Below are positions 15,871 through 25,915 of a stretch of 64,000 nucleotides of DNA, one piece after another. Position 1 is the stretch's first letter; every line of letters starts with the position of its first letter. The stretch comes from a phage. The position numbers and the translations under genes were made by a program. Location of the stretch: sequence record PZ445521.1; one strand, given 5' to 3'. Under the pieces are notes generated by a model. It saw nothing but the letters and a program-made list of their open reading frames with translations, was not told where the DNA came from and ran no database searches.

Positions 15871-16341
15871 TTAATCATGTGTCCACACCCCATCGGTATT
15901 TGACCAAAGTCGCTGATTATCTGATCCTCGCCACAGCTTTTTAGTCGGAAGATTTTTCTCATACTTCCCATCAATAATAACATCAACATATTTAAGCATT
16001 TCTAGTTGTTTAATATCTTCAAACTTATATCCTGTCCACAACCAAATGCTTTTATTGGGATAAAGATTTTTAATAGTTTGAACCACAGAGTGAATCACGT
16101 CTCTGTTATCAGGATAAAGAGGGTCACCTCCGGTTATAGTCAATCCTTCTATATAATCATTATTCAAACATTCAATTAATTGTTCTAGTGTTTCACCAGT
16201 GAATGGAACACCATTTCTAGCATTCCATGTTGATTTATTATAACACCCTTCGCATTTATGCAAACAACCTGTAACGAAAAGAACGACCCTGCATCCAGGG
16301 CCATTCACAAAATCACAGGGATAAAATCTATCGTAATTCAT
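15871..16341 (-). CDS. nrdG: anaerobic ribonucleotide reductase activase NrdG (radical SAM)
   Basis: 156 aa; Cys cluster ...TGCLHKCEGC... Confidence 0.9.
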   Translation of the reverse strand: MNYDRFYPCDFVNGPGCRVVLFVTGCLHKCEGCYNKSTWNARNGVPFTGETLEQLIECLNNDYIEGLTITGGDPLYPDNRDVIHSVVQTIKNLYPNKSIWLWTGYKFEDIKQLEMLKYVDVIIDGKYEKNLPTKKLWRGSDNQRLWSNTDGVWTHD

Positions 16342-18155
16342 TGGTGTTTAACCCTATGCATGATTTCTTTATTTTTACCGAGATTAAATCCGCGTTCGTT
16401 CGGATTTCCCAAATAACCACATGTTCTTCTTATTGTGTTCATCTTTTTAGGATCAGTTTCTCCACAAATAGAACAAACAAATCCGTTTTCAGTAGGAGTC
16501 ATTTCATGGGTACTTCCGCATGTAAAACATTTATCTACTGGCATATTAACACCAAAATAATCTAAATGTTGTGCAGCATAATCCCATACGGCCTCAAGAC
16601 CTTTTAGGTTATTTTTCATATCAGGAAGTTCAACATAAGAAATGTGGCCGCCTGTCGCAATGAAATGATATGGTGCTTCGCGAGAAATCTTTTCAAACGG
16701 AGTAATATTTTCTTCTACTGAAACATGGAAACTGTTAGTGTACCAGCCTTTATCAGTAACATCCTTTACACTTCCATATTTTTCTGTATCAAGTTTACAG
16801 AAGCGATAACAAAGGTTTTCAGCAGGAGTCGAATATAAACTAAAAGCAAATCCGGTTCTTTCAGTCCACTGCTTAAGATGAGCATTCATTTTAGTTAAAA
16901 TTTCTTGTCCAATATCACGACCGACAAGAATATTTAATTCGTGAATACCAATGTATCCTAGAGACACTGAACTTCTACCGTTTTTAAATAACTCAATTAT
17001 ATCGTCATCGGGTTTAAGACGAACCCCGAATGCACCTTCTTGGTAAAGAATAGGAGCAACAGTCGCTTTAACTCCTTTTAAGGAACTAATTCTACACATC
17101 AAAGCTTCAAAACACAGATCCATTCGTTCATTAAATAGCTCAACAAATTTCTGCTCATTGAATTGAGTTCCAATATAAGAATCTAATGCGATACGAGGAA
17201 GATTCAGTGTTACAACACCGAGATTATTACGTCCATCAAGAATTTCATTACCGGTTGAATCTTTCCACACACTCAAAAAACTGCGGCAACCCATTGGAGA
17301 AACAGGAATAGATGAGCCGGTGATAGCTTTATTGTTCTTAGCTGAAATAATATCAGGATACATTCTTTTGCTTGCGCACTCTAGAGCAAGCTGTTTAATA
17401 TCATAGTTCGGATCGTCTTTATAAAGATTAACACCTTCTTCAACAAACATAACAAGCTTAGGGAAAATAGGAGTTATCCCATCACGACCAAGACCTTTAA
17501 TACGATTTTTCAGAATTGCTTTCTGAATCATTCGTTCAGTCCAGTCAGTTCCTGTACCAAATGTAATTGTTACAAAAGGTGTTTGTCCGTTTGAACTAAA
17601 GAGAGTATTTACTTCATATTCATAAGCTTGGAATGCATCGTATACATCTTTTTCTGTTTTAGATTGAGCATAATTCAACGCATCAGCGATTTGCCATTTT
17701 TCTGCATCCTCAATATGTTTTGCATAGGTGCGTTTAACATAAGGAGAAAGTACTTTATCTACATTCGCAAAAGTCGTTCCGCCGTATTGGTGAGAAGCAA
17801 CTTGCGCAGTAATTTGCGCCATAATTGCAGTAGCAACTCCAATTGATTTAGGAGTTTCAATCTGTGCATTACCTAGCTTAAATCCGTTTTCAAGCATTCC
17901 TTTTAAATCTACTAAACAACAATTAGTAAATGGAAGAGCAGGGGAATAATCAATATCGTGGAAATGGATAATTCCGCTTTCATGCGCTTTCATAATAAAA
18001 GACGGGACCATATTTTTGGCAATGTGTTTAGACACAATACCAGCCATAAGGTCCCGTTGAGTTGGAAAAACACGAGAATCTTTATTAGCATTCTCGTTCA
18101 AAAGGTCTTTATTAGTTTTATGAATCAATCCTTCAATTTCTTTTTCAATTGTCAT
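16338..18155 (-). CDS. nrdD: anaerobic ribonucleoside-triphosphate reductase NrdD, uninterrupted
   Basis: 605 aa continuous ORF; C-terminal glycyl-radical motif RTCGYLG and Zn ribbon CFTCG...CSICG. Confidence 0.95.
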   Translation of the reverse strand: MTIEKEIEGLIHKTNKDLLNENANKDSRVFPTQRDLMAGIVSKHIAKNMVPSFIMKAHESGIIHFHDIDYSPALPFTNCCLVDLKGMLENGFKLGNAQIETPKSIGVATAIMAQITAQVASHQYGGTTFANVDKVLSPYVKRTYAKHIEDAEKWQIADALNYAQSKTEKDVYDAFQAYEYEVNTLFSSNGQTPFVTITFGTGTDWTERMIQKAILKNRIKGLGRDGITPIFPKLVMFVEEGVNLYKDDPNYDIKQLALECASKRMYPDIISAKNNKAITGSSIPVSPMGCRSFLSVWKDSTGNEILDGRNNLGVVTLNLPRIALDSYIGTQFNEQKFVELFNERMDLCFEALMCRISSLKGVKATVAPILYQEGAFGVRLKPDDDIIELFKNGRSSVSLGYIGIHELNILVGRDIGQEILTKMNAHLKQWTERTGFAFSLYSTPAENLCYRFCKLDTEKYGSVKDVTDKGWYTNSFHVSVEENITPFEKISREAPYHFIATGGHISYVELPDMKNNLKGLEAVWDYAAQHLDYFGVNMPVDKCFTCGSTHEMTPTENGFVCSICGETDPKKMNTIRRTCGYLGNPNERGFNLGKNKEIMHRVKHQ

Positions 18156-19276: not shown

Positions 19277-19597
19277 TTATAGCGTAATCCATTCTCGTAC
19301 TGTCTGAGTTACTACACGTTCACGGGGCTCGACTAGTTCAACAGTCGGAACTGCATAATACCAATCAGAATGATAAGAACCTGACCGAGATTCATTTACA
19401 GCCACATGTACATTATGTTTTGGACTAAAGTAAACACACTGACGATATTGACATTTACCATCTTGCACCCAGTCTTCTATTTCGACAGGTTTAAGATAAT
19501 CGGAAAAATCGAAATCATAGTTTTCCGAAAATGCATCATGGTCTTCAATGATTTCGCTCAGAACTGCATCAACATCTAATTTATTTTCAATAGTCAT
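19277..19597 (-). CDS. hypothetical protein (49.1 position)
   Basis: 106 aa ORF. Confidence 0.45.
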   Translation of the reverse strand: MTIENKLDVDAVLSEIIEDHDAFSENYDFDFSDYLKPVEIEDWVQDGKCQYRQCVYFSPKHNVHVAVNESRSGSYHSDWYYAVPTVELVEPRERVVTQTVREWITL

Positions 19598-20502: not shown

Positions 20503-20892
20503 TTAATCCAAAATATTATTAGGCATTGGTTGAACACTCACAAGTTCTTTAAAGAACTCAGTAGAGTCAGGCAATTTAACCATTTCCGGAGCATGCTTAC
20601 TGAATTTATGTTTACATTGACGGCATTTATATTCAAGCTCTGGTTTACGCCAGTTAATCAACTGAACTTGTTCAGTACCGCATTCAGGGCAATTAGGAAC
20701 GTTTTTAGAAGCTCTTTCACGTCGTTCAACCATAGCCATAATAGCATCCCATGCTGGAGGTTTAAAATCTAAATCGTCGCAGCCGTGAATCTTTCCACGC
20801 ATTTCCATATCATCTTCCTCACCAGCCATAATAATTTTAATTAAACTGGAATTACTTGAAGCTGCAATGTCTTCTAATAAACGCTTTTTCAT
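20503..20892 (-). CDS. hypothetical zinc-ribbon protein
   Basis: 129 aa; Cys pairs CPECG ... CRQCKH. Confidence 0.5.
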
Positions 20893-21818
20893 TTCAATAC
20901 CTCAATAGCATTACGTAAACCATTTGCTTTTGCATTAAGAGCTTTTAACAATTTGGTGTGTTCTGCAATTTGGGCTTCAACTTCAATCAAACGGGCATTG
21001 AGATATTCACGTTCTTCACTCAGATTATCAACCTTTTCCACTTTAGGCTCTTTTACAACTGTCTTATATGTATTAGGGTTCTTCAGTTTAATTAGAATGC
21101 GTGAACTGTATAACATTGAACCATTATCTTCGGTTTCGTCATACATTTCCACTACGTCCATAATTTTTAACATCATGCGGAGTTTATAAGACAACGAACG
21201 AATAGTTTTGTTGTGCTTATTAATTTCTTTAGCTGTCATGGTGCCAAGATTACGTGAGTAATAATAAGGAACCTGGATATTAATTAATACTGATGAACCA
21301 CCTGGCTTGTGTGTTACTTCATCAGCAATAACCCAGTCCTTAACATGAACTGTATTTGTACGGTCATCGCCCGCGGTAAATAGTTTGCGAGCATGCTTAA
21401 AAAGCATATTCACTTGGGTATTGAATTGACAAGCAAATTTATCAGCAAATTTAGTTTCAGGAATGGTAGATAACCAATCAGCCAAATGGGTCTTTTTAAC
21501 ATCGTTAACAATAGTAAATTCAACCAAATCGGTTATAGATGTCGCAGTTTTAATGAATCTCGGCTTCATAAAGTTTTCAATGTTATCACGAGCTACAGTA
21601 GAAGATAACATACGAGAACGTTTAAACCATTCAAGCAAATTGCCTAACGAATGAGAATAAGCGTTTTGAGTATCTTTACAGATATGATTTTCCTGGCCAA
21701 CATATTGAAGGAAATCACGAAGAATATTATTGATTACTGCTCTGTGTCCTATCTGATAATTACGATGTTTAGTAATAAGACTGTCAAAATAATCAATATA
21801 ATGTTTACGAGTTTTCAT
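20889..21818 (-). CDS. hypothetical protein, coiled-coil paralog family member 1
   Basis: 309 aa; C-terminal ~50 aa heptad-rich helix; see finding. Confidence 0.55.
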   Translation of the reverse strand: MKTRKHYIDYFDSLITKHRNYQIGHRAVINNILRDFLQYVGQENHICKDTQNAYSHSLGNLLEWFKRSRMLSSTVARDNIENFMKPRFIKTATSITDLVEFTIVNDVKKTHLADWLSTIPETKFADKFACQFNTQVNMLFKHARKLFTAGDDRTNTVHVKDWVIADEVTHKPGGSSVLINIQVPYYYSRNLGTMTAKEINKHNKTIRSLSYKLRMMLKIMDVVEMYDETEDNGSMLYSSRILIKLKNPNTYKTVVKEPKVEKVDNLSEEREYLNARLIEVEAQIAEHTKLLKALNAKANGLRNAIEVLK

Positions 21819-21870
21819 GTTCTTCTCACTTGGTTAATGATTTATACTCCGAGCCATCCTTGGCTTTAAA

Positions 21871-22872
21871 TTACTTAATTAACTGTAAAGCTTGTTCAAG
21901 ACGATCCAGGCGATTAACAGATTCTTCCCAAATCCTTTTAGCCTGCTCATATTCTTTCTGCGCTTTATTAGAAATTTCTAGAACTTCTTTATAAGCTTTT
22001 TCTAATGCAATAACTTCTGGACGAATTTCTACCGGTTCAGGCGAATCATCAAGATTATCCATTAGTTCCTCAAGGGTAGTTTCTTCTTTAGGAGTATTCA
22101 CAATTTCATCACATTTTTGTTGGTAAATTTCTTTATCAGTAGGTGAATAAGCACATTTCACTTCACGAAGACTAATTACAATTTTATATCCTTCCCAGCC
22201 GCATATATTCTTAAAAGGATATGTATGAATATTTTCTACTGTTTCCATACAAAGTAATGCGGTCTCTAATTGACGAGTTATAGTGCTAGCAATTGAGAAA
22301 AATTTATTAATATTCTTTTGGTTAGTTTCTGGTGTAAAAAATCCATAATTCACAAAAATAGATACTTTATTTTTATCAAGTTCATATTCTTTTATGATAA
22401 TCATGTCAGAAGCCAAAGGATGAATTTGACGATAATCACCATAACATAATTTAGAAGCTGATTTTAGAATTTGCTTCTTAAAAAGTCTGAAATTACTAAT
22501 CCAACGACGAGTAAAAATATTCTCAGGGTCTTCTTTATTATTAAGATGATAAGAATTAACATCACCGAACCAATTATATCCTACTACATCTTTGGTTCGT
22601 TTAATTTCTTTCCCAAAATTACCAAGAATATCCCGATTAACCAAATATGAAAGAAGACGAGACTCTTTAAAGGTTTTCTTGATAACATCTTTATCTACAC
22701 GACTAGAAATTTTACGAATTTCATGAATAAATTTAGTAGAAGAAACAATACTTGCATCAACACTATTGAGCCATTGATTGATAATAGAAAGAACGATATT
22801 TTGACCAAACATCGGTATAGCTTTATCATCAATAACGCTATTGAATGATTTGATATATTCGTTACGAGTCAT
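21871..22872 (-). CDS. hypothetical protein, coiled-coil paralog family member 2
   Basis: track ORF trimmed to second ATG with GAGGAG RBS; first ATG lies inside early promoter. Confidence 0.55.
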   Translation of the reverse strand: MTRNEYIKSFNSVIDDKAIPMFGQNIVLSIINQWLNSVDASIVSSTKFIHEIRKISSRVDKDVIKKTFKESRLLSYLVNRDILGNFGKEIKRTKDVVGYNWFGDVNSYHLNNKEDPENIFTRRWISNFRLFKKQILKSASKLCYGDYRQIHPLASDMIIIKEYELDKNKVSIFVNYGFFTPETNQKNINKFFSIASTITRQLETALLCMETVENIHTYPFKNICGWEGYKIVISLREVKCAYSPTDKEIYQQKCDEIVNTPKEETTLEELMDNLDDSPEPVEIRPEVIALEKAYKEVLEISNKAQKEYEQAKRIWEESVNRLDRLEQALQLIK

Positions 22873-22894
22873 ATTAATCTCCTCATTAGAAAGT

Positions 22895-22935
22895 AAGAAC
22901 ATTATACCACATCCTTGTGGCGAAGTAAACTAGTT
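22895..22935 (-). promoter_or_regulatory. T4-type early promoter
   Basis: GTTTAC, 18 bp, TATAAT. Confidence 0.65.
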
Positions 22936-23955
22936 TAGTGCATTTAGTGCATTGTTCAGTTTAGAACGTTGCTTTGTCAGATTTTGAACCCTTGACTGAG
23001 CTTGTTCTAACACCTTTTCAGCTTCTAGCACTTCATTGGTCGCTTTAACGAGTTCATCATCTACTGCCTTAAGAGACTTCTCAATCGCGTCAGCGTGCCA
23101 TTTTTCTACAGGTTTAAGACTCGGATTTTCAACAGGAAGAAAATTCACTTTATTGAATTTCCATGCATCATTATTACCTGAACTATACATCCAAAATTTA
23201 GAATCGTTTGATGAGTAATTGGATAAATTTAAATTTAAGTTATCTTGCACTTCTTGCTTTTTCTCTTGCGGGACTTCGTCCTTTCTCAAAAAATCGTATT
23301 TAAATGAAACGATCATATCAAGTTCATATGTTGTCGTATCTAACTTAAATCGTTCAAAACGAGGTAAAATCTTAGATTGAACAGCAGCAACAACATCCAT
23401 ATACTTAAATGCTTCTGTCAACTGTGATTTAAGACATTCACAAATTGAAAGAGAATTTTTAGTATTAGGCTTAAAGCTAATTCGTGCAGTTCTATTATTT
23501 TCTTTAGATGGTCTTACTTCCATTTGAAGAGTATAACCATCAAATTTCAAATTCTTTAAGTTAATATCAGAACCTTTTAATCGACTAGCAGTAGACAAAA
23601 TTTGCTTTAATTGTTTACGGAATAGAGCAATAAATCTCCATTCAAGACGATAATGATTTGGATTAAAAAATCCTGTTGATAAATCAACCTTACTCTGACC
23701 AATGCCTTGAACAAATAGAGGATTTTTATAATCAATAGTTTTACAGAAATCGGTGAGCTGCTCACGAGCAGTCATTTGTGTAATATATCCCGCTTTACTA
23801 AAATGACGTAACCATTCACTGCTATTCATATATTTAAAGTGAATATCACGATTAACTTTATCAGGGTCTAAATTATTTTGGCACAAAAATGTCATAACAT
23901 CACGAGTATAGCTGGCATTACGAACCATATCTTCAATTTGAGAACGAGTTTTCAT
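22930..23955 (-). CDS. hypothetical protein, coiled-coil paralog family member 3
   Basis: 341 aa; shares W..F..FRKQLKQIL.TASRL block with member 2. Confidence 0.55.
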   Translation of the reverse strand: MKTRSQIEDMVRNASYTRDVMTFLCQNNLDPDKVNRDIHFKYMNSSEWLRHFSKAGYITQMTAREQLTDFCKTIDYKNPLFVQGIGQSKVDLSTGFFNPNHYRLEWRFIALFRKQLKQILSTASRLKGSDINLKNLKFDGYTLQMEVRPSKENNRTARISFKPNTKNSLSICECLKSQLTEAFKYMDVVAAVQSKILPRFERFKLDTTTYELDMIVSFKYDFLRKDEVPQEKKQEVQDNLNLNLSNYSSNDSKFWMYSSGNNDAWKFNKVNFLPVENPSLKPVEKWHADAIEKSLKAVDDELVKATNEVLEAEKVLEQAQSRVQNLTKQRSKLNNALNALN

Positions 23956-23963
23956 GGTGTTCC

Positions 23964-24851
23964 TTAAGATTTAAGTAAATCAACAATTTTAATTAACTTT
24001 TCACGCTCAGATTTAGCTTTACTACTCAATCCAGATAGTCTGAATATTTCATCATCATATTGTTGAATAGAAATATTTAGCTCTTCTATTTGTTTACTGA
24101 AATAATCAATCTGCTCGGAATATTTTTCATTACTGCGAACTGGTACAGGTTTTGTAGGAAATTTAGTTAAACTGGATTCATCCGGGCGATAAATTAAAAT
24201 GCAATTTGAACCAATCGGGCATTTAGCACCAGATGAATATTCTAACGTTCCAGCTTCTTTTAAAACTTCAAAAGCTAAACAGAGATGATGCCCCATATTA
24301 ACATAATCTGTAGAGCGAGCTCTGACGTAATAATCATCGCCGCGAATACTAAATTTAAAGCATTTAAGGTCTTCTGTATTATTGGTCTTAAAAATCATTT
24401 GTTTATCTAGACCTTTAGCTAATCGAGCGCCTAATGCTAATAATCGTCGTTGATTTTCCCACAAATCCGTAATCATTTGATCGAATGATAATTTAGGCAT
24501 TAGTCGACCATAAAGGTCATATCCTTTATTATAATTGCGAAGGATTTCACTCGCATTAATACGAGACAACGCTCCAATTTTATTAAGGGCTTTCATGATG
24601 CGATTAGATAAACCCATTCCAGACCCATTTGTTCGTTGTAAATGTTTTTCTAATCCAAATCCAATATCAACTTTAAATTTATCTAAAATTTCAGCATGAA
24701 CATCTCTGTCAATAACATTCAAATCCAAAGTTGGGTTAAATCTATGAAAAAATTTATCTGGCTCTCCACGACGAAGTACAGTCCATTCATTTAATTTTTT
24801 ATTAACTAAAGATTTAATTACTGCATTGACATTATTAATTACTACTGACAT
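23964..24851 (-). CDS. hypothetical protein, coiled-coil paralog family member 4
   Basis: track TTG start trimmed to ATG at 24851. Confidence 0.5.
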   Translation of the reverse strand: MSVVINNVNAVIKSLVNKKLNEWTVLRRGEPDKFFHRFNPTLDLNVIDRDVHAEILDKFKVDIGFGLEKHLQRTNGSGMGLSNRIMKALNKIGALSRINASEILRNYNKGYDLYGRLMPKLSFDQMITDLWENQRRLLALGARLAKGLDKQMIFKTNNTEDLKCFKFSIRGDDYYVRARSTDYVNMGHHLCLAFEVLKEAGTLEYSSGAKCPIGSNCILIYRPDESSLTKFPTKPVPVRSNEKYSEQIDYFSKQIEELNISIQQYDDEIFRLSGLSSKAKSEREKLIKIVDLLKS

Positions 24852-24862
24852 ATTTTTCTCAC

Positions 24863-25267
24863 TCAATTTTCAATTTTACTAAATACACAGAATATGATGG
24901 AAAAGACTATATAAGCACCGCATACAGATTGAACTAATACCATTCCAAAGAACCAAACAATATTATCAAACAATGTCTGTTTTACGTCGAAAGGACGTAA
25001 ACTTACAGTAATATTATCGCCTTTTTCTATTGATGAATACATCTCTGGTGAAATATATTCACTAAATCTATAACCGTCTTTGAGTTCATATACGGCAATA
25101 AACGATAAACTAGACCCCTTTCCTTGAGTTCCTGTAAGGGTATTAACTACAGTAACATCATAATCTTTATAATGCATATAATCATTAATTGCATAATAAC
25201 CATATGCAACTACTACACATAAACAACATATCAATAAATTCAATCTTTTAATTATCAACTGTTTCAT
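24863..25267 (-). CDS. membrane protein
   Basis: 134 aa with hydrophobic segments at both ends. Confidence 0.5.
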   Translation of the reverse strand: MKQLIIKRLNLLICCLCVVVAYGYYAINDYMHYKDYDVTVVNTLTGTQGKGSSLSFIAVYELKDGYRFSEYISPEMYSSIEKGDNITVSLRPFDVKQTLFDNIVWFFGMVLVQSVCGAYIVFSIIFCVFSKIEN

Positions 25268-25322: not shown

Positions 25323-25850
25323 TTATGCGAGTACCGTCTTTAACCGTTCTTCAAACTTCCGAAGAGTATTTTGGCGTTCAGCTCTTTGCTTTTTGTAAGT
25401 TTCAATACGCTCTGAAATGAGAGTGTATCGTTCATTTACTGATTCTTTCATAAAATCAGGAATTTCACGAGAAGCTTTAATCTCATCAAATTTATCAATA
25501 ACAGCTTGCTCTTCAGCAATTAAGTTATCATACATCAAAATATCTTTCTTGATGAACTCAATATCTTCTTGAGTTACACGAGATAATTTAGATGCTTTAT
25601 CCTTTTTGTACTGTTCGTTAGTATCACGAGACCAGTGTAATGTACGATTTTTATTCGTATTCTTGTAAATTTCTACAATACCAATCTCATCAATAATAAC
25701 GATCCAATTCCAACGAGATTTGTAAATTTGTCCTCCGTCAACCGTGATTTCACCTCCGATTGAGATGTCATTAAAGAACTTGCTTTGTGCTTCAGATTTA
25801 AATTTACCATCGTTGTAATTTACCAGGTTGAAAATATCTTTAGCGTTCAT
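25323..25850 (-). CDS. hypothetical protein
   Basis: track ORF trimmed to MNAKDIF... (ATG 25850, GGAGGA RBS); upstream part is promoter. Confidence 0.5.
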   Translation of the reverse strand: MNAKDIFNLVNYNDGKFKSEAQSKFFNDISIGGEITVDGGQIYKSRWNWIVIIDEIGIVEIYKNTNKNRTLHWSRDTNEQYKKDKASKLSRVTQEDIEFIKKDILMYDNLIAEEQAVIDKFDEIKASREIPDFMKESVNERYTLISERIETYKKQRAERQNTLRKFEERLKTVLA

Positions 25851-25869: not shown

Positions 25870-25915
25870 GATAGTTGTATAGTACCACAGAGGAACGGTC
25901 TTGTAAACAACTAAA
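25870..25915 (-). promoter_or_regulatory. T4-type early promoter
   Basis: GTTTACA, 17 bp, TACTATAC. Confidence 0.65.

Follow-up and report, generated by a model that had tools for sequence, protein, structure and literature searches.

One strand of the phage sequence record PZ445521.1 (64,000 nucleotides, in the following called the window) carries four adjacent minus-strand genes at 20889-24866, and the question raised by this locus is whether they belong together, as was proposed in an initial annotation made from the sequence alone, and what such an array does for the phage. The window is from a Tequatrovirus: the 5-kb stretch with the four genes has 100% identity to Shigella phage JK38, and hundreds of Tequatrovirus genomes match it at 90-97%. 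Named by alignment to the annotated T4T record, the four open reading frames (ORFs) are those of T4 nrdC.3, nrdC.4, nrdC.5 and nrdC.6 (for the proteins NrdC.3, NrdC.4, NrdC.5 and NrdC.6, the short forms C3, C4, C5 and C6 are also used), and with T4-type start codons their products have 309, 333, 341 and 295 amino acids (aa), in agreement with the range of 295-341 aa given initially. The four genes are diverged tandem paralogues of one Straboviridae-specific family, and judged by its sequence, NrdC.5 of the window is the orthologue of the T4 anti-Dsr1 protein, an activity that has been published for the T4 protein only.

20889..21818, minus strand: nrdC.3 coding sequence, 309 aa, 60% identical to T4, PHROG 1435
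21871..22872, minus strand: nrdC.4 coding sequence, 333 aa, 98% identical to T4, PHROG 1435
22930..23955, minus strand: nrdC.5 coding sequence, 341 aa, 94% identical to T4, PHROG 2351
23964..24851, minus strand: nrdC.6 coding sequence, 295 aa from the T4-type ATG, 96% identical to T4, PHROG 2257

NrdC.5 of the window is 94% identical to that of T4 over 340 aa, is syntenic between nrdC.6 and nrdC.4, and matches Pfam PF23882 (DUF7235) over its full length with 403 bits and E 1.2e-120 (gathering score 30 bits). PHROG 1435 is matched by NrdC.3, which is of the JK38-type allele, with E 7e-116 and by NrdC.4 with E 9e-169, and PHROG 2257 by NrdC.6 with E 2.5e-151. PF26897 (Phage_T4_Y04OP) was assigned to NrdC.3 and NrdC.4 via the precomputed domains of representatives that are 88-98% identical, each of which carries it, and PF26899 (Phage_T4_Y05B) to NrdC.6 via relatives, 105 of 105 of which carry this domain, including representatives that are 94-97% identical. 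Pfam splits the four proteins into three separate families. The 343-aa ORF that many GenBank records give for nrdC.4 is 10 codons too long (22873-22902, minus strand): the start is the ATG at 22872 and not that at 22902, because a GAGGAG ribosome-binding site precedes 22872 and 22902 lies inside a promoter -10 box.

Relationship among the four proteins

Profiles were built from the homologues found and compared by hhalign, and as controls the target profile was replaced by one reversed and 11 block-shuffled versions. C3 and C4 are already recognised as relatives by blastp (26% identity over 226 aa, E 4e-7), being the only significant pair in that search, and hhalign gives them a probability of 99.2% with E 1e-18. 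For C5, profiles of close relatives only give P about 1e-4 against C4. When the C5 profile was enriched and took in the distant positional orthologues VR26 gp088, P0259 and P0262, global hhalign gave P 1.2e-6 against C3 and P 3.8e-6 against C4, and C5 together with mogra_186 aligned to the merged C3+C4 profile with a probability of 97.4% globally (E 4e-11) and 95.8% locally (E 7.7e-9, 177-276 columns). With C6, the direct pairwise comparison to each of the other families is not significant (hhalign values of 0.07-0.3 for C4-C6 and 0.01-0.2 for C5-C6, and P about 1e-3 for C3+C4 against C6), and the merged C3/4/5 profile reaches it at P 4.3e-6 globally and 5e-4 locally, which is marginal by sequence. 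The score of the C3/4/5-C6 alignment is 32.4, as compared to 6.6 +/- 4.0 for the shuffled copies (maximum 13.1) and 10.9 for the reversed one, and thus lies about 6 standard deviations above the shuffled controls; across the comparisons, real scores are 32-35 and control scores 5-7 +/- 4 (maximum 15). The paralogy seen in the initial annotation is thus strong for C3-C4 and for C5 with C3+C4, and weaker for C6.

The motifs that align throughout the family are SRLLS..V..d.L..FGK, W..F....ILksAsKL..GD.R, AL..MdtVE and a terminal L..AL..LK, and the most conserved block is the second of these:

22429..22518, minus strand: most conserved family block, NrdC.4 residues 119-148, W..F....ILKSASKL..GD.R

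Its equivalents are at residues ~121-150 of NrdC.3, ~103-130 of NrdC.5 and ~123-150 of NrdC.6. The internal blocks FTRRWISNFRLFKKQILKSASKL and YRLEWRFIALFRKQLKQILSTASRL, which had been noticed as shared between neighbours, are indeed aligned to each other by the profile-profile alignment, within the W..F....ILksAsKL..GD.R motif. The proteins had further been described as having variable N-terminal domains, and this applies to the N-terminal region of C6 and to the first ~50 residues of C5, which in the Tequatrovirus form are absent from Gaprivervirus-type orthologues, but the homology spans the whole length. An N-terminal M(K)TR..(Y)I motif is common to C3, C4 and C5, conservation is highest in the N-terminal helical domain (C3-C4) and in the central core, and the linkers are also variable.

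The C-terminal helix

That all four products end in a heptad-rich helix is borne out by a heptad scan that covered the final 50 residues of every window ORF with 120 aa or more (61 ORFs), in which the four genes take ranks 1-4 (scores 0.84, 0.58, 0.58 and 0.56; median 0.08), and by AlphaFold2 models of NrdC.4 and NrdC.6, whose terminal helices have 48 and 53 residues, respectively.

20892..21035, minus strand: NrdC.3 C-terminal heptad helix, about residues 262-309
21874..22020, minus strand: NrdC.4 C-terminal helix, residues 285-333 (AlphaFold2 helix 285-332)
22933..23097, minus strand: NrdC.5 C-terminal heptad helix, about residues 287-341
23967..24128, minus strand: NrdC.6 C-terminal helix, residues 242-295 (AlphaFold2 helices 242-271 and 277-294, with a kink at SGLSS)

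In all four proteins the helix is heptad-periodic and poor in Pro and Gly, with 80-100% of the a/d positions being hydrophobic as opposed to 12-32% elsewhere, and the helix of NrdC.5 has the top heptad score in the window, with hydrophobic residues at 10 of 10 a/d positions. The conserved C-terminal coiled coil of the initial annotation is thus conserved as a feature but not as a sequence, as the end-anchored identity over the last 45 residues is only 0-9 positions and lies above that of shuffled sequences only for C4-C5.

The helix is also found in another context: a protein of 173 aa (P0261) combines 120 unrelated N-terminal residues with the NrdC.5 C-terminal helix at 86% identity, which suggests that the NrdC.5 helix can move as a module. 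The C-terminus of nrdC.8 (window 25323-25850, minus strand) is likewise heptad-rich, ranking 5th among the 61 ORFs. As a fifth family member nrdC.8 was rejected, there being no profile similarity to NrdC.3-6 despite the heptad helix at its end.

Predicted fold and the position of NrdC.6

AlphaFold2 models based on the family alignments were obtained for NrdC.4 and NrdC.6 with mean predicted local distance difference test (pLDDT) values of 83.9 and 78.7, respectively. The elements of the C4 model (helices H, strands E) are H119-130, H132-140, H145-148, E158-162, E169-174, H185-208, E212-221, E227-235 and H285-332, those of the C6 model H123-132, H134-144, H147-150, E165-170, E173-178, H186-199, E204-209, E217-221 and H242-294, and both models thereby have the common order H-H-h-E-E-H-E-E-linker-long helix, with the elements in register with the sequence alignment. 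In a Foldseek search of BFVD, the C4 model finds NrdC.6 of JS10 at E 3.2e-5. Six further matches, with E 1e-7 to 1e-3, are shared by both models, and the TM-scores (template modelling scores) of the Foldseek matches are 0.37-0.49. The common matches are uncharacterised proteins of 300-346 aa from T4-like phages of Enterobacter, Pectobacterium, Acinetobacter, Serratia and Yersinia. A sequence search of the PDB with all three family profiles gave nothing below E 0.03.

NrdC.6 might also be no true paralogue at all, having arrived at a like architecture by convergence or chance, which would agree with the non-significant direct family-family comparisons and with the low TM-scores of the Foldseek matches. 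Such a coincidence is distinctly unlikely in view of the P of 4e-6 in the combined profile comparison, about 6 standard deviations above the shuffled controls, and of the aligned motifs that fall on the same secondary-structure elements of two independent models. It also has to be reconciled with the conserved tandem position, with the nrdC.6 orthologue that is reached by the C4 model at E 3e-5, and with the six matches that both models have in common at E 1e-7 to 1e-3.

Distribution and rearrangements

The position of the array upstream of nrdC is fixed, and its composition is as follows:

Tequatrovirus: C3, C4, C5 and C6
Gaprivervirus VR26: C4, a C5-like protein and C6
Mosigvirus mogra: C3, a C5-like and a C6-like protein
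Acinetobacter phage Acj61 (subfamily Twarogvirinae): p120 and p121, tandem structural relatives directly upstream of nrdC

As the membership differs by genus, C3 and C4 appear to fill one slot, either as alternatives or as duplicates. Acj61p118 (268 aa), which is encoded beside p120/p121, has no similarity to the family. Relatives at the same position occur in T4-like phages of Escherichia, Klebsiella, Serratia, Erwinia, Pectobacterium, Yersinia and Acinetobacter. The NrdC.5 family is narrow, as among 1.84 billion representatives only 13 reach E<1e-3. Of these, P0267 consists of a low-complexity repeat, P0266 has the appearance of an assembly chimera, and the genuine ones are all T4-like. Scanning IMG/VR for this family with a degenerate pattern contributed 5 further loci and no new diversity.

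Within the array, genes are lost, fused and partially duplicated. In phage a48 (L011 3378-4375), a 177-aa fragment and several small ORFs are what remains of nrdC.4, which is a natural loss of a paralogue. An in-frame fusion C5(145-273)::C3(129-309) with deletion of nrdC.4 (P0056; L014 3070-4400) is present in 4 contigs, three of which have 50-200 kb, and the N-terminus of nrdC.5 remains at this locus as a separate 115-aa ORF. NrdC.6 of Shigella phage Sf25 (P0152; also in Sf22) has 378 aa as the result of an in-frame tandem duplication of residues 176-258, whose 83 residues cover the core helix, the hairpin, the linker and the start of the coiled coil. Elsewhere in Acj61, two adjacent genes for 372-aa proteins are found, p076 and p077 (L013 9028-11322); the annotation gives p077 as a putative copy of p076, making this a further tandem duplication in a T4-like phage.

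Divergence and selection

Protein identities to the window were determined for 10 other Tequatrovirus phages, and they are 60-98% for C3, 89-98% for C4, 87-94% for C5 and 93-98% for C6, as compared to 96-100% for the flanking gp49, nrdC, nrdC.1, nrdC.8, nrdC.9 and nrdC.10. Between genera, identities fall to 22-27% for C5, 32-51% for C6, 49% for C4 and 75% for C3, with 78-99% for nrdD, gp49, nrdC, nrdC.1, nrdC.10 and nrdC.11 (78-91% for nrdC, gp49 and nrdC.11) and 67-84% for nrdC.8. The four genes are a local divergence hot-spot. The family is not invariant across T4-like phages, so that the refuting outcome named in the initial annotation did not occur, and a rapid diversification as such was correctly recognised in the initial annotation, the identity being lower than in the flanks within as well as between genera.

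Diversifying selection in the strict sense, which had been proposed for the array, is not supported by the ratios of non-synonymous to synonymous substitution rates (dN/dS, omega). The Nei-Gojobori method, which is crude and blind to single sites, gave on 11 Tequatrovirus sequences 0.36, 0.22, 0.18 and 0.11 for C3 to C6 and 0.00-0.16 for the neighbours, and no 30-codon window of the four genes exceeded 0.82 in these sequences. Positive selection is not demonstrated, as omega never reaches 1 gene-wide or in 30-codon windows; the constraint on the four genes is relaxed or heterogeneous, and their turnover is rapid.

The alleles of nrdC.3 fall into three classes among 654 phage records, with an identity of at least 90% in 358 cases, of 60-80% in 211 and of less than 60% in 81. 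The window has the commonest allele class, whereas T4 belongs to the ~60% class. It is the middle of nrdC.3 (residues ~76-270) that is exchanged between the alleles; the ends stay conserved and may act as recombination sites. As dS is high too, this variation looks like an exchange of old alleles and not like a recent adaptive change.

Anti-defence function, published for NrdC.5 and proposed for its paralogues

A function is known for one member of the family. A T4 deletion mutant fails on ECOR17 due to Dsr1, and T4 nrdC.5 in trans restores the plating of this mutant on the Dsr1 cells (Srikant, Guegler and Laub, eLife 2022, PMC9391042). The anti-defence role that had been guessed for the array is thus correct for NrdC.5, and may extend to C3, C4 and C6. 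Dsr1 is reported to have an Avs7-type TPR sensor and to be triggered by the major capsid protein of phage ZL19 (2026 preprint PMC12803255). In T4 genome reduction, nrdC.1-6 was a removable block (PMC9825161).

Could the four proteins form one hetero-oligomer that is joined by the C-terminal helices and acts as a single unit? Each of the four adjacent genes does give one long amphipathic helix, and with only 8 nt from the nrdC.6 stop to the nrdC.5 start there is an apparent translational coupling of these two genes. However, plasmid-encoded nrdC.5 alone rescued the mutant (which of the paralogues the mutant had kept is not stated in PMC9391042), the helix sequences are unrelated, whole genera have only three of the four members in differing combinations, and phage a48 lacks an intact nrdC.4, all of which makes a joint complex very improbable.

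Searches for function beyond NrdC.5 gave little. No experiment or paper on the function of nrdC.3, nrdC.4 or nrdC.6 was found in the literature, and among the curated families and defence models of Pfam, NCBIfam and PADLOC, none assigns a function, with Pfam offering only DUF7235 for C5. The N-terminus of NrdC.3 resembles the tyrosine-recombinase SAM-like core-binding domain very weakly and far below the cut-offs (Pfam E 0.07, NCBIfam E 5.6e-4), and the matches of a tyrosine-recombinase N-terminal domain to C3 (19 bits, cut-off 279) and of BrxC to C4 (13 bits) are sub-threshold noise. The isoelectric points of the four proteins are 9.4, 6.9, 9.2 and 9.2, with a net positive charge on the N-terminal and core parts. 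An acidic DNA mimic of the Ocr or Arn type was rejected, as the proteins are not strongly acidic.

These properties have to be considered also in another light, as the family may have a scaffold in common and not a function, with only NrdC.5 being anti-defence and C3, C4 and C6 serving, for example, in early nucleic-acid binding, regulation or host take-over. The basic character of the proteins with their positive N-terminal and core parts, the very weak SAM-like match of the NrdC.3 N-terminus, the dominance of purifying selection and the fact that among the four genes nrdC.6 varies least (93-98% identity within the genus) would all be in line with such roles. Against them speaks that the genes are dispensable in laboratory hosts, that shifts in copy number, pseudogenes and fusions are typical of accessory host-range genes, and that the sole tested member is anti-defence, and a scaffold without common function is therefore regarded as rather unlikely, albeit worth keeping in mind.

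Expression and proposed mechanism

Two promoters of the T4 early type are found at the array, both of which are annotated as early promoters at the same places in phage ASO78A:

22901..22930, minus strand: T4 early-type promoter GTTTAC-N17-TATAAT with upstream TG, directly upstream of nrdC.4
25879..25908, minus strand: T4 early-type promoter GTTTAC-N17-TACTAT with TG, upstream of nrdC.8

The promoter at 25879..25908 is likely the source of an nrdC.8-7-6-5 transcript. As the NrdC proteins are transcribed from T4 early promoters, they would be present before the late structural proteins. In the gap between nrdC.4 and nrdC.3 (window 21839-21846, minus strand), TATAAATC matches the T4 late promoter TATAAATA in 7 of 8 positions; this putative late promoter lies 21 nt upstream of the nrdC.3 start, with a short hairpin (21849-21863) adjoining.

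It is somewhat likely that NrdC.3-6 are early, oligomeric, stoichiometric inhibitors of host immune sensors, with an anti-defence activity that has been published for C5 and would extend to C3, C4 and C6. According to the models and profiles, each protein would begin with an all-helical domain at the N-terminus, followed by an alpha/beta core (helix-helix-hairpin-helix-hairpin), a linker predicted with low confidence and the long heptad helix, which most likely makes the protein oligomeric. NrdC.5 would bind directly to Dsr1, before the presumed trigger gp23 accumulates, and thereby hold the SIR2 NADase off. The paralogues would be stoichiometric binders of the same kind that target different host immune proteins or their variants, with the specificity coming from fast-changing core and N-terminal surfaces and the avidity from the coiled coil. 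We infer direct binding, oligomerisation and the anti-defence roles of C3, C4 and C6 from the early promoters, the dispensability, the gain and loss dynamics, and by analogy from DSAD1 and DSR2 as a precedent. A more specific version, in which the Straboviridae-wide array is a diversifying battery of early coiled-coil decoys that each pre-emptively occupy the sensor of a different pattern-recognition immune protein of the host (Dsr1, Avs-type TPR sensors), ahead of the late structural proteins that would set it off, and in which the alpha/beta core may be a virion protein recruited as the mimic, is doubtful.

Several observations weigh against this mechanism or against the unity of the family behind it. 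The membership of NrdC.6 comes with weak profile scores and with Foldseek matches of low TM-scores (0.37-0.49), and the link of C5 is by sequence profiles only, as no NrdC.5 orthologue could be identified among the BFVD matches of the C4 and C6 models. With dN/dS below 1 everywhere, selection is purifying, and the NrdC.5 core (residues 106-195) is near-invariant within Tequatrovirus, with omega 0.00-0.05, which fits a conserved function as well as an arms race. Basic proteins would also suit nucleic-acid binding.

Comparison with known systems

The closest known case is T4 NrdC.5 itself (PMC9391042), to which the window gene corresponds with 94% identity, the same position and DUF7235, with the neighbours being its paralogues. 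By description, a likeness exists also to DSAD1 of an SPbeta phage, as this too is a protein with which a phage disables a defence-associated sirtuin sensing a phage structural protein, and according to two reports (PMC10981675, PMC11087589), DSAD1 acts by binding the SIR2 NADase sensor DSR2. It differs in that it belongs to another phage group and host, and in that DSR2 is triggered by the tail tube protein whereas Dsr1 is triggered by the major capsid protein; also, a direct binding is only presumed for NrdC.5. Like the dmd-tifA-adfA genes ("anti-TA island"), IPI/IPIII and Gp49.2, the array is early, dispensable and fast-evolving, and these genes, which address one defence each, are in hyperplastic regions as well. 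However, they encode small, unrelated, single proteins, whereas NrdC.3-6 are multidomain proteins of ~300 aa with a coiled-coil tail, encoded in a tandem array of 3-4 members. The alpha/beta core resembles tail terminator or completion proteins (lambda gpU, SPP1 gp17-like, DUF3168) at the fold level only, nitroreductases and RNA-polymerase RBP11-like domains score nearly equally, and unlike the tail terminators, the NrdC proteins are early products with extra domains.

The genes have long been annotated in T4 and the function of NrdC.5 is published, and no mention of a relationship among NrdC.3-6 was found in the literature. What appears to be new is the merging of three Pfam families into one, the Straboviridae-wide tandem array beside nrdC, and the proposal that NrdC.3, NrdC.4 and NrdC.6 may be inhibitors. 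The claim is a modest one, as it concerns long-annotated genes with one published function and three candidate ones. Few inhibitors of defence-associated sirtuins are known besides NrdC.5, and if nrdC.3, nrdC.4 and nrdC.6 are its paralogues, they can be named as candidate inhibitors of further defence systems. The family alignment distinguishes constant parts (core motifs, terminal helix) from changing ones (the middle of NrdC.3 and, in NrdC.5, the N-terminus and linker) and thereby points experimenters to the parts for swap or mutation, and the relatives in T4-like phages of several hosts widen the search space.

Neighbouring genes

At 1.3 kb from nrdC.3, the window encodes a homologue of T4 gp49.2 (19277-19597, minus strand; 104 of 107 aligned positions identical). 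T6 Gp49.2 inhibits the OLD defence nuclease (published 2026, PMC13096335), and the 49.2 homologue would bring the genes that counter the host in the stretch from pin to nrdC.11 to at least three (pin, 49.2 and nrdC.5). RB32 and JoYop have a seg-like homing endonuclease gene between nrdC.9 and nrdC.10 (L010 7802-8521, L008 7795-8514) that the window lacks, and nrdD (16338-18155, minus strand) is an uninterrupted 605-aa ORF without the group I intron with I-TevII of T4. The polymorphic gene nrdC.2 (20503-20892, minus strand) encodes 129 aa as compared to 104 aa in T4, with 78% identity over 100 aa, and its product ends in a zinc-ribbon-like CxxC...CxxC tail with a weak match to Pfam Zn_ribbon_8.

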